61,677 nucleotides of DNA from Thermoplasmata archaeon (lineage in GTDB: Archaea; Thermoplasmatota; Thermoplasmata; Lutacidiplasmatales; UBA184), in assembly GCA_021801925.1 (NCBI GenBank), contig JAKABH010000004.1, forward strand, positions 1 through 61,677, written 5' to 3'. Below are positions 19,383 to 35,110 of this stretch, piece by piece (positions within the stretch are counted from its first letter, which is position 1; every line of letters begins with the position of its first letter). Made by a program: the position numbers and the translations under genes. Below the pieces are notes generated by a model. That model ran no database searches, was not told where the DNA came from, and saw only the letters and a program-made list of their open reading frames with translations.

Positions 19383-19937
19383 GTGGTCGGGCACAGCTTC
19401 TCCTCCTACGAGCGGGAGCTGCGCGACCTGCTGCAGGGTGACCGGGGCGCCGTGCTCCGCTACGGGAAGTCGATCGACCCCGCCTCCCGGCCGGCCCTCG
19501 AGCGGGTGCTCCGGGCCCCGTTCCTGGTCGTGCGGGGGGCCGGCTCCCTCGGCTTCGACCTCGTGGCCCTCCGCCGGGAGCTTGCCCTCCCGGTCGAGGT
19601 GAAGGCCTCCGCAGAGCCGACGATCCACTTCACCGCCGCGAGCGGGCGCGCCGCCGAGCAACTCGCCGCGCACCGCGCCGCCGTAGAGCGGGTCGGTCTG
19701 GTCGCGGTGTACGCCTACCGGCGCATCGGCCACCGCGACGGGGACCCGTGGCGGTTCTTCTCCGCCTCGCAACCCCCCGCCCGCGGGACCCTCGGTCTCT
19801 TCGCGAAGCGTCTGCCGCCGGTCGAACGCACCCGGGAGGGGAATGCGGTCCTCCGCTGGGAGAACGGGATGTCCCTCGTCCGGTTTCTGGGGACGGTGCA
19901 TACCCTTTTCGAGCCGACGGAACTGCCGGCGATGTGA
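19383..19937 (+). CDS. hjc: Holliday junction resolvase Hjc-like PD-(D/E)xK nuclease
   Basis: YERELRDLL, FLVVRGAGSLGFDLVALR, PVEVKAS, YAYRR. Confidence 0.78.
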   Translation: MVGHSFSSYERELRDLLQGDRGAVLRYGKSIDPASRPALERVLRAPFLVVRGAGSLGFDLVALRRELALPVEVKASAEPTIHFTAASGRAAEQLAAHRAAVERVGLVAVYAYRRIGHRDGDPWRFFSASQPPARGTLGLFAKRLPPVERTREGNAVLRWENGMSLVRFLGTVHTLFEPTELPAM

Positions 19938-21067
19938 CCGCCCAGGTGGTCGCCACCGGTTTCGCCCGGTTCGGGCGGCGCCCGGAGCCGCTGGTCGCGC
20001 TTGCGGCCGAGGCGGTCGGCGCGGCGCTCGAGTCGATCGGGCGCCGGCCCATCGACCTGGTCGTGGTCGGGAACATGCTCGGCGGCGCCGTGAACCACGA
20101 GGAGAACCTGGTCTCGCGGATCGCCAACCAGACCGGGCTCGAGACGGCGGCCGGGTTCCGGGTGGAGGCGGCGAGCGCGAGCGGCGCCGCCGCGTTCCAC
20201 GCCGCGACCCTGGCGGTGGAATCGGGGCGGTACGAGCGCGCGCTCGTCGTCGCCGCCGAGAAGATGACCGACCGCCCGACGGCGGAGGTCGCCGCGGCCC
20301 TCGCCGCCTCGCTCCACCCGACGGAACGCGCTGTCGGCGCAACGATGCCGGCGCTCGCGGCGCTGGTGAGCCAGCTCTACGGGGACCGGTACGGGGTCGA
20401 CCCGTCGGCCGCCGATCGGGTCTCGGTCGCCGCCCGCCGCGCGGCGGTCGCCAACCCGTTCGCGCAGTTCCGCACGGCGGTGACGGAGGAGGAGGTCGGG
20501 GCGAGCCGGCCGATTGCGCCGCCCCTCCGGCTCCTGCACTGCTCCGCGATCTCCGACGGCGCCGTCGCGGTCGTCCTCGAACGGGGGAAGGGCCCCGCGA
20601 GCGTCGTGGGCCTGGGGCAGGGGTTCGACGCGATGGCCGTCATCGACCGGGCGGATCTCACCTCCTTCGTCGCGACCCGGACCGCGGCCGAGCGGGCGTT
20701 CCTGGCCGCCGGGCGGAGCCCCCGCGAGGTGCAGGTCGCCGAGCTCCACGATGCGTTCGCCCCGTTCCTCTGGATCGACCTCGAGGACCTGGGGTTCGCG
20801 GAGCCGGGGAGCGCGTGGCGATGGTTCGCCGGGGAGCGCGCGCGCCCGGCCTCCGCGCCCGTCGTGAACCCGTCGGGGGGTCTGATCGGTCGGGGGCACC
20901 CGGTCGGCGCCTCGGGGCTCGCCGCGGTCGCCGAGGTCGCCCGCCAGCTTCGGGGCGAGGCCGGCCCGATCGGGGTTGACCCCCGTCCGACGTTGGGGGT
21001 CGCCCAGTCGATCGGGGGCCTCGCCTCGCACAACTTCGTGACGATCCTGGGGGAGGTGGACCGATGA
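19934..21067 (+). CDS. Thiolase-family protein (SCP-x/archaeal type), nucleophile Cys replaced by Ser
   Basis: VEAASASG, AEKMT, CSAISDGA, AELHDAF, VNPSGGLIGRGHPVGASG; GTGA overlap with hjc. Confidence 0.88.
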   Translation: MTAQVVATGFARFGRRPEPLVALAAEAVGAALESIGRRPIDLVVVGNMLGGAVNHEENLVSRIANQTGLETAAGFRVEAASASGAAAFHAATLAVESGRYERALVVAAEKMTDRPTAEVAAALAASLHPTERAVGATMPALAALVSQLYGDRYGVDPSAADRVSVAARRAAVANPFAQFRTAVTEEEVGASRPIAPPLRLLHCSAISDGAVAVVLERGKGPASVVGLGQGFDAMAVIDRADLTSFVATRTAAERAFLAAGRSPREVQVAELHDAFAPFLWIDLEDLGFAEPGSAWRWFAGERARPASAPVVNPSGGLIGRGHPVGASGLAAVAEVARQLRGEAGPIGVDPRPTLGVAQSIGGLASHNFVTILGEVDR

Positions 21068-21456
21068 CGGCGCCGGAGATCGTGGTGAGCCGCTGTCCGT
21101 CCTGCGCGGCGCGCTACCTCCCGCGGGACGGTCCGTGTCCGAAGTGCGGGGCGACGGCCGCCGAACCGTGCCCGTTGCCGGCCCGAGGGACCGTGCTCGC
21201 CGCCACGGAGCTCGCGAGCCCGGTCGCCGGATGGACGGCACCGCACCCGCTGGTGCTTGTCGAGATGGCCCAGTCGGTGCGGGTCCTGTGCGTAGGCTCC
21301 CGCCCCGCGCCGGCCCCGGGGACGGAGGTCGAGGTCGCCCGGGACGGCGACGGCTACCGCTGCTCGGCCGTCGGCGCCGCGGGGCCGGGGGTACGCGGGG
21401 AGGGGGAGTTTCCGGCGGTCGGCGCGGCCGGCCGTCCTTTTGAACCCCCGAGGTGA
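21064..21456 (+). CDS. DUF35 zinc-ribbon/OB-fold thiolase partner
   Basis: CPSC..CPKC, GTVLAAT, PLVLVEM; ATGA overlap with the thiolase. Confidence 0.85.
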   Translation: MTAPEIVVSRCPSCAARYLPRDGPCPKCGATAAEPCPLPARGTVLAATELASPVAGWTAPHPLVLVEMAQSVRVLCVGSRPAPAPGTEVEVARDGDGYRCSAVGAAGPGVRGEGEFPAVGAAGRPFEPPR

Positions 21457-21508
21457 AATCACCACTGGATTAGCAATCCAGCGCCTTGCCGGGCTGGGCC
21501 ATCCCCGC
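21394..21508 (-). tRNA. tRNA-Ser(GCU) with 31-nt non-canonical intron in the T-loop (intron 21438-21408)
   Basis: Spliced sequence GCGGGGATGGCCCAGCCCGGCAAGGCGCTGGATTGCTAATCCAGTGGTGATTTCACCTCGGGGGTTCAAA^TCCCCCTCCCCGCG. It has a perfect acceptor stem, anticodon stem CTGGA/TCCAG with GCT, long variable arm GGTG/CACC, T-stem GGGGG/CCCCC and discriminator G. No CCA is encoded. Confidence 0.9.
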
Positions 21509-21654
21509 GCGGGGCGGCCGAGGAGGGCTCGCTCCTTAAGCCTTCGGGCGGCCGGAAGGGGCGGGCGGTAGGGGGCCCCGCTCGGAGGGGGGCCGCCGCC
21601 GGCGGAACCGTCCGTACGCACCCGCCTTAAGCCGCGGTCGGTCCTTCCGGTCCG

Positions 21655-35037: not shown

Positions 35038-35110
35038 GCCGCCATAGCTCAGTCGGTAGAGCGGCTGATTTGTAATCAGCAGGTCGGGAGTTCGATCCTC
35101 TCTGGCGGCT
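35038..35110 (+). tRNA. tRNA-Thr(UGU), intron-less
   Basis: GCCGCCA..TGGCGGC acceptor stem, GCTGA-TTTGTAA-TCAGC anticodon arm, GGGAG-TTCGATC-CTCTC T-arm; CTATAT upstream. Confidence 0.96.

Follow-up and report, generated by a model that had tools for sequence, protein, structure and literature searches.

A 31-nucleotide T-loop intron interrupts the tRNA-Ser(GCU) gene of an uncultured Thermoplasmata archaeon

Introns between positions 59 and 60 of transfer RNA (tRNA), in the T-loop, are known from ARMAN-2 (Ca. Micrarchaeum acidiphilum), whose pre-tRNA-Cys(GCA) carries a 59/60 intron of the hBH type and whose pre-tRNA-Pro(GGG) carries introns at 53/54 and 59/60 in the strict hBHBh' motif, a bulge-helix-bulge (BHB) bordered by an outer (h) and an inner (h') helix (PMC3239211). 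T-arm introns are a frequent feature of Thermoproteales and of Asgard archaea (PMC8450103, PMC4090602, bioRxiv 10.64898/2026.10.13.758758), and lysine-bearing loops of the splicing endonuclease EndA, termed CSL and ASL, are held responsible for broad specificity of the enzyme (PMC5829648). Euryarchaeota with alpha4 or alpha'2 enzymes are credited in reviews with fewer than 10% interrupted tRNA genes, all of them interrupted at 37/38 (PMC4090602). These and further papers are cited throughout for their passages on tRNA introns and EndA. Here we describe a tRNA-Ser(GCU) gene with a 59/60 intron in a 61,677-nucleotide (nt) stretch of DNA (the window; contig JAKABH010000004.1 of assembly GCA_021801925.1, positions 1 to 61,677, forward strand), which belongs to the genome of an uncultured soil archaeon of the Thermoplasmata (1.57 Mb, 73% GC, 94.7% complete). 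Such introns are apparently undescribed in the Thermoplasmata literature: we found no paper on T-loop introns in this class, and the word “intron” is absent from the main text of the Lutacidiplasmatales paper PMC9287336 (supplements aside).

The gene and its promoter are organized as follows.

21394..21508, minus strand: whole tRNA-Ser(GCU) gene, 115 nt with intron; class II, discriminator G, CCA not encoded
21439..21508, minus strand: 5' exon, 70 nt, tRNA positions 1-59; acceptor 5' strand, D-arm, anticodon arm (GCU), variable arm, T-stem 5' strand and TTCAAA
21408..21438, minus strand: intron, 31 nt, site 59/60; one bulge nucleotide, GC-rich hairpin (h'), GGAA facing T54-A57, two bulge nucleotides (AC)
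21394..21407, minus strand: 3' exon, 14 nt, positions 60-73; T60, T-stem 3' strand, acceptor 3' strand and G73
21534..21546, minus strand: archaeal promoter with CGAAGG resembling a B recognition element (BRE; 21541-21546), then TATA-like CTTAAGG (21534-21540), at -38 to -26 from tRNA position 1

Read on the minus strand, the locus displays a 7-nt acceptor strand, a D-arm with GG motif, an anticodon loop of 7 nt that contains GCU, a long variable arm of 4 base pairs (bp), and five Gs followed by TTCAAA. The next 31 nt (21438-21408) match no tRNA element; behind them come a T and a run of five Cs, then a strand fully complementary to that of the acceptor, and the discriminator G73. Cutting this insert out yields a perfect 7-bp acceptor stem, a 5-bp T-stem made of G-C pairs throughout and the 7-nt T-loop TTCAAAT, which places it between positions 59 and 60, and ARAGORN calls the sequence spliced in silico tRNA-Ser(gct). 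A previous interpretation made from the letters alone (the sequence-only reading) had proposed this gene and this intron, with a cloverleaf that is complete only upon removal of the insert, and had warned that standard annotation could miss it. All of this is borne out: the genomic locus receives neither a call from default ARAGORN nor an Rfam match at gathering score, and in E-value mode Rfam returns a partial match of 23.7 bits (cut-off 29 bits) that skips the T-arm. We conclude that the locus is a real tRNA-Ser(GCU) gene with a 31-nt T-loop intron of the known protein-spliced kind. When introns were allowed, ARAGORN made calls by the dozen whose introns would span hundreds to thousands of bases, and these were treated as false; a “Ser gct” call of this mode (C31:27034-27137, C numbers denoting contigs of the host assembly) sits within coding-like sequence and was rejected.

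Both junctions fall into the hBHBh' layout of two 3-nt bulges, a helix of four positions between them, and an outer and an inner helix. The GGAA near the 3' end of the intron supplies the pairing partners of T54, T55 and C56, namely A, A and G, and its first G lies opposite A57. The bulges, AA^A (A58-A59-^-A) and AC^T (A-C-^-T60), comprise 3 nt each and lie on opposite strands, four positions apart. The T-stem forms the outer helix and the intron hairpin, starting immediately 3' of the 5' bulge, the inner one. Since the strict hBHBh' form has four standard pairs in its central helix and three are found here beside the A57-G opposition, the intron is close to that motif without quite reaching it. 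For the 115-nt precursor RNAfold predicts a cloverleaf (-59.1 kcal/mol, z = -3.14; 1 of 200 shuffled sequences is as good), and its minimum-energy structure contains a GG / CGG / CGGC hairpin within the T-stem. Pairing, mismatch and bulges had been read correctly from the letters, and the GC hairpin postulated then (GG/CC, CGG/CCG, CGGC/GCCG) is the one that RNAfold returns. Across the genus the base facing A57 is G in 21 of 22 sequences and T in the remaining one, as it is in AT-rich relatives; GC pressure acting on a tolerated purine-purine opposition beside the 5' bulge is a possible reason.

A DNA search for the interrupted gene covered 40 relatives, a survey that the sequence-only reading had recommended, and found it at full length (query 1-115, 82-92% identity) in 22 of 24 genomes of the same genus, or 21 of 23 if the unpublished genome G019 is left aside. 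The two genomes that lack a match are 83% and 75% complete. For an anchored comparison, 22 sequences (G019 excluded) were lined up at both splice sites. Their exons are almost invariant and their introns widely divergent, with T54, T55 and C56 paired in 22/22. Within the first eight positions of the inner helix, 158 of 176 cells are paired (90%), compared with 54-97 of 176 (31-55%) when the register is shifted by 1-3, and most of these positions display several pair types. A MAFFT alignment of 34 segments comprising T-arm and intron (21 Ser(GCU) genes of the genus, one from another family and 12 other host tRNAs; alignment A1) has 83.7% of 607 cells paired versus 70.0 +/- 1.0 in shuffles, none of 500 shuffles reaching the observed value, and 41-66% in slid controls; 14 of 18 pairs show changes on both sides. 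The pairing of the intron, rather than its sequence, is thus what is kept among relatives; the covariation figures lend support to the fold and are not to be read as probabilities.

An interrupted tRNA gene without a call from standard finders might be a pseudo-tRNA or the scar of an integration event at an attachment (att) site, that is, a broken Ser(GCU) gene out of use, all the more as tRNA 3' halves are common integration targets. Such decay is hard to reconcile with near-invariant exons and a co-varying intron in 22 sequences, or with the promoter, which is kept in 22/22: a cGAAnnTTTAAGG-type box stands at the same distance in every genus sequence although the flanks differ. Neither integrase nor repeat flank was seen adjoining the gene, and there is no sign of an integrated element there; the remark in the sequence-only reading on the 3' half as an integrase target is speculative. 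With ARAGORN, RF00005, BLAST and a BHB scan, neither the 94.7%-complete assembly nor those of relatives yielded another Ser(GCU) gene, which answers for this assembly whether the copy is the only one, a check named in the sequence-only reading; at the same time, AGY codons make up 27 of 94 serine codons in four host genes. Conservation, covariation, promoter, single copy and AGY use together make a pseudogene or att scar very unlikely, and the same design recurs in twelve other tRNA genes of the host.

These twelve genes emerged from an intron census of the host genome that combined inspection of the sequence around partial hits of RF00005 or ARAGORN with two scans, one for BHB-like site pairs over the whole genome and one targeted at T-arms. 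Including Ser-GCU, 13 host tRNA genes carry a 59/60 intron, of 26-35 nt; the others are:

C85:21869-21988: Ser-GGA, 59/60 intron
C56:2396-2501: Asn, 59/60 intron
C47:15-120: Glu-CUC, 59/60 intron
C54:62033-62138: Ala-GGC, 59/60 intron
C7:7513-7617: Gly-UCC, 59/60 intron
C83:9640-9741: Arg-UCG, 59/60 intron
C54:55287-55396: Arg-UCU, 59/60 intron
C17:31899-32006: Gln-CUG, 59/60 intron
C17:31749-31873: Leu-UAG, 59/60 intron
C75:3037-3174: Lys-UUU, 59/60 intron and D-loop intron
C25:9945-10052: Asp, 59/60 intron
C79:58297-58405: His, 59/60 intron

Default ARAGORN places the 3' end of Gln, Arg-UCU, Arg-UCG, Asp and His wrongly, within the intron. Where position 57 is G, the intron supplies C (6/6), and where it is A, the intron has G in five of seven cases, A in one and T in one. 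Seven of the 13 T-loop introns display a perfect 4-bp central helix. Further introns interrupt the D-loop of three other genes:

C84:2141-2249: Arg(GCG), D-loop intron
C72:4082-4185: initiator tRNA-Met, D-loop intron
C10:1-113: Pro(UGG), D-loop intron, for which no clean boundaries were obtained

The D-loop introns of Arg-GCG, the initiator and Lys-UUU have four base pairs in the central helix and a strong inner helix but only 0-1 of 4 pairs in the outer one, and thus look like relaxed HBh' motifs. Canonical introns are found in Tyr, Leu-UAA and Trp. Altogether, 40 tRNA genes are recognised, 21 uninterrupted and 19 interrupted, with 20 introns, 17 of which are non-canonical; about a third of the genes carry a 59/60 intron, and this site accounts for 13 of the 20 introns. 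A BLAST search that used all known tRNAs as queries did not recover Glu-UUC, Gln-UUG, Gly-GCC, Leu-CAA, Val-UAC or a third CAU tRNA; they may be unassembled, given the completeness of 94.7%, or more heavily interrupted.

The genome-wide BHB scan is noisy: 1,077,759 site pairs gave 399 ARAGORN calls across a junction, most of them spurious, and calls were kept only after a filter on acceptor stem, T-stem and T-loop invariants, followed by reading by eye. The filter missed Asn, Lys-UUU, Asp and His, which were recovered from the flanks of partial hits; a “Leu caa” call (C72:15554-15661) was rejected on reading. Default ARAGORN additionally reports a “tRNA-Pyl” (C12:23195-23294), a 97-nt “Pro tgg” (C23:17260-17356), a 90-nt “Pro cgg” (C49:18949-19038) and a “Leu cag” (C53:3545-3624), all in coding-like GC-rich DNA without RF00005 match and probably false positives. 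tRNA-Thr(CGU) is present in two identical copies (C8:9937-10009 and C19:1-72), one at the very end of a contig, and the duplication is probably an assembly artefact rather than two genes. The tRNA-Trp(CCA) gene (C51:247-407) has an intron of 88 nt at the canonical site; the tRNA-Trp intron of other archaea holds a box C/D RNA.

To follow the T-loop introns through the class, the 13 host sites served as seeds of a covariance model of the T-arm with intron (R1), which was run on 150 genomes that are at least 80% complete plus the host (151 in total; families are given by code). R1 recovers exactly its 13 seeds in the host, a match by construction, with no extra hits at E <= 1. Hits were obtained in 57 of the 151 genomes. 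All 17 genomes of the host's own family (including the unpublished G114) are among them, with 3-13 hits each and 9-13 in the genus. One to four hits per genome are found in families f6 (17/18 genomes), f16 (4/4), f24 (4/4), f27 (5/5), f23 (2/2) and f11 (3/6), and each of the seven hits sampled outside the host family is a T-arm whose T-stem is perfect and which carries an insert at 59/60. R1 found nothing in f8 (0/16), f20 (0/14), f10 (0/8), f5 (0/5) and others, zeros that are weak because the model was trained on GC-rich introns. It missed the AT-rich sister family f3 of the same order, in which searching two genomes (G026 and G028) with a simple pattern produced 11 and 8 hits, compared with 0-1 in the reversed control. 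Eighteen of these 19 hits are T-arms with introns of 11-14 nt at 59/60 (L146-L163), partly in the same tRNAs as in the host (Ser-GCU, Glu-CUC, Leu-UAG, Gly-UCC, Asp and Arg-UCG). Such mini-introns leave no room for an inner helix, so that the 5' splice site would lie in a loop (hBH or BHL type). Inserts at 59/60 in relatives range from 11 to 37 nt. Family f2, also of this order, departs from the pattern: in two genomes (L129/G025 and L130/G027) the T-loop of Ser(GCU) is intact and an insert of ~44 nt, bordered by a 6-nt direct repeat, sits on the 5' side of the anticodon loop, and the gene of a third genome (L031) has no intron. The intron position in the Ser(GCU) gene therefore shifts within the order.

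EndA is encoded at one locus of the host (C12:10444-11508), by an open reading frame (ORF) of 354 amino acids (aa) in which PF01974 and PF02778 each occur twice (N-C-N-C). The closest public proteins stem from metagenome-assembled genomes labelled Thermoplasmata archaeon, among them UBA184, of the Lutacidiplasmatales group, and isolates whose names follow the style of PMC9287336. The best match among solved structures is the fused Methanopyrus kandleri beta-alpha enzyme 5x89 (E = 4e-32), with the Archaeoglobus fulgidus alpha'2 enzyme also among the best. Residues 187-354 align to residues 4-171 of the M. jannaschii alpha4 enzyme with a single one-residue gap, so that there is no CSL- or ASL-like insert. 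The C-terminal unit keeps the catalytic Tyr, His and Lys of 5x89 and 1a79 (residue roles after PMC5829648). By its domain order and alignment the host EndA classifies as an alpha'2-type protein with two tandem units in one chain, presumably acting as a homodimer. EndA matches were obtained in 145 of the 151 class genomes (one of them unpublished), and the collinear form of ~350 aa occurs in families with and without R1 hits. The two f3 genomes that carry mini-introns encode the same two-unit type, and alignments with 16 EndAs of the class, theirs included, display no insertion or deletion specific to intron-rich families. The ligase RtcB is present in the host genome (571.7 bits).

The sequence-only reading had attributed the unusual intron position to an EndA of relaxed specificity and had suggested typing the enzyme. 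Typing did not reveal a broad-specificity architecture, be it (alpha-beta)2 with CSL/L1 or epsilon2 with ASL/L2; the single two-unit gene encodes a protein without such an insert that is collinear with EndAs of families without R1 hits. Relaxed specificity is not needed for the tRNA-Ser(GCU) intron and is not visible in the protein, so that the attribution is not supported as it was stated. What speaks for it are the HBh'-like D-loop introns of the host and the f3 mini-introns without inner helix, which lend it partial support. Introns of the f3 type were not cleaved in vitro by the A. fulgidus and M. kandleri enzymes, even after an hour, in the assays given in PMC5829648.

Taking these results together, we consider it very probable that this locus is the one functional tRNA-Ser(GCU) gene that the organism has and that its intron is excised at 59/60 as a BHB. 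Most simply, an ordinary two-unit EndA would act on a near-canonical BHB that happens to be built on the T-arm, and from gene anatomy, conservation and enzyme complement we infer the following course. Transcription from the gene's own BRE/TATA promoter would yield the 115-nt precursor, in which the T-loop cannot form, as T54, T55 and C56 would be paired with A, A and G near the intron 3' end while A57 faces the conserved G. With the T-stem as outer and the intron GC hairpin as inner helix, both splice sites would be exposed in 3-nt bulges. EndA would cut after A59 and after the last C of the intron, and RtcB would join the exons, whereupon the normal 7-nt T-loop could form. Since the central helix is built on the near-universal TTCR of the T-loop, the same design would be workable in any tRNA, in keeping with its occurrence in 13 host genes and throughout the order.

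Several points weigh against this account. Two-unit enzymes of the alpha'2 type are assigned a narrow specificity (PMC6379350, PMC5829648). The central helix comprises three standard pairs only, with A57 facing G almost throughout the genus, and the motif is not strictly canonical; the RNAfold structure lacks this 3-bp helix altogether and has a 7 x 7 internal loop in its place. The covariation controls have their limits: the sequences share ancestry, they are themselves the source of the structure, and A1 contains other tRNAs besides orthologues. Finally, no spliced RNA was seen, and no exon joint occurs in two assembled contigs of relatives, which cannot show mature tRNA. A search of sequencing runs for the locus gave small shares only (0.06-0.09 of sampled words). 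Of four RNA-labelled runs, two yielded nothing and the other two one contig each, one being a relative's unspliced gene and the other exon 1 followed by a relative's intron; both contigs reach the promoter and may be DNA.

The A57-G opposition with its three standard pairs, the internal loop of the minimum-energy fold and an EndA without the known broad-specificity loops would suit an insert that is removed by another nuclease or on another fold, with a junction that is off by a base or two. We give this reading a very small chance. Only the 59/60 junction both restores TTCAAAT and fits two 3-nt bulges four positions apart, the same register recurs in the 13 host genes and in 18/19 pattern hits of the sister family, the 4-bp central helix is perfect in 7/13, and no system besides EndA and the BHB is known to remove tRNA introns in archaea. 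The RNA-labelled runs examined, which lack direct evidence of splicing, would also agree with a tRNA that retains the insert and works with an enlarged T-loop region of 38 nt. This is extremely improbable, given that the tRNA elbow requires the T-loop, whose 7 nt are conserved universally, that the splice-site geometry is kept rather than any sequence of the insert itself, and that relatives' inserts at the same point vary so widely in length.

Two further features of the window concern the surroundings of the gene and the tRNA complement.

21064..21456, plus strand: ORF of 130 aa, ChsH2/DUF35-like zinc ribbon plus OB fold; Pfam matches stop at residue 91; not part of the tRNA
35038-35110, plus strand: tRNA-Thr(UGU), the other tRNA gene of the window; uninterrupted, 71.3 bits in Rfam

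The C-terminal tail of the ChsH2/DUF35-like ORF, which has no Pfam match, overlaps the tRNA-Ser(GCU) gene by 63 nt, with its TGA stop in the variable arm, and is probably a run-on in stop-poor, GC-rich DNA. The ORF is preceded by a thiolase-like gene (19748-21067).

The failure of default ARAGORN and Rfam at this locus, together with the wrong 3' ends and doubtful calls described above, implies that without intron-aware tools errors can enter tRNA counts, genome-quality scores and decoding inferences for these archaea, which are abundant in soil and peat. With 19 of 40 genes interrupted and 17 of 20 introns non-canonical, the host is the opposite of what the reviews state for Euryarchaeota with alpha4 or alpha'2 enzymes. 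It is conceivable, although we rate the chance somewhat below even, that the order underwent a Thermoproteales-like spread of non-canonical introns (59/60, HBh' D-loop and 11-14-nt introns) while keeping a fused, loop-less alpha'2-like EndA. If so, the enzyme would cut motifs that resist in vitro cleavage by those loop-less enzymes that have been assayed to date (A. fulgidus and the M. kandleri fusion). In that case broad specificity would have re-arisen via an unknown determinant, or the rule that EndA architecture limits intron diversity would fail. In the host, the proposal that EndA architecture and intron diversity have co-evolved could be tested directly with one recombinant protein. Moreover, the order offers a natural series of 59/60 introns, short and long, with and without inner helix, and with A-G or standard pairs beside the 5' bulge, which could be used to define what EndA requires.

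Among described systems, ARMAN-2 resembles the host in the 59/60 site, in the use of the T-stem as outer helix and in its many interrupted tRNA genes (56%, versus 19/40 here), and it was once placed in or near the Euryarchaeota. It differs in its EndA, a three-unit epsilon2 enzyme with ASL, whereas the host enzyme has two units and no such insert; furthermore, 59/60 is the dominant site in the host. Thermoproteales, other TACK archaea and Asgard archaea share with the host non-canonical BHB introns, T-arm introns included, a high fraction of interrupted genes and cases missed by annotation tools, yet their EndA is an (alpha-beta)2 enzyme with an L1/CSL loop and not, as in this member of the Thermoplasmata, a fused two-unit enzyme. 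Canonical 37/38 introns processed by the alpha'2 EndA of A. fulgidus and Thermoplasma acidophilum (PMC6379350) follow the same motif logic and depend on the same enzyme family and two-unit layout, and the host, too, has three canonical introns; its predominant site, however, is 59/60 and the central helix described here contains an A-G opposition. The structural unit of the host EndA is full length, while the A. fulgidus chain is gapped against it in the alignment; a deletion in those orders is also mentioned in the methods of PMC5829648. A further parallel for the enzyme is M. kandleri, in which, as in the host, a loop-less EndA, there of “constrained” specificity, must handle a non-canonical D-loop intron in vivo, the HBh' intron of pre-tRNA-Glu(UUC) (PMC5829648). 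There, one such intron is found in 35 tRNA genes and EndA consists of two separate subunits, whereas in the host 17 non-canonical introns would depend on one fused protein.

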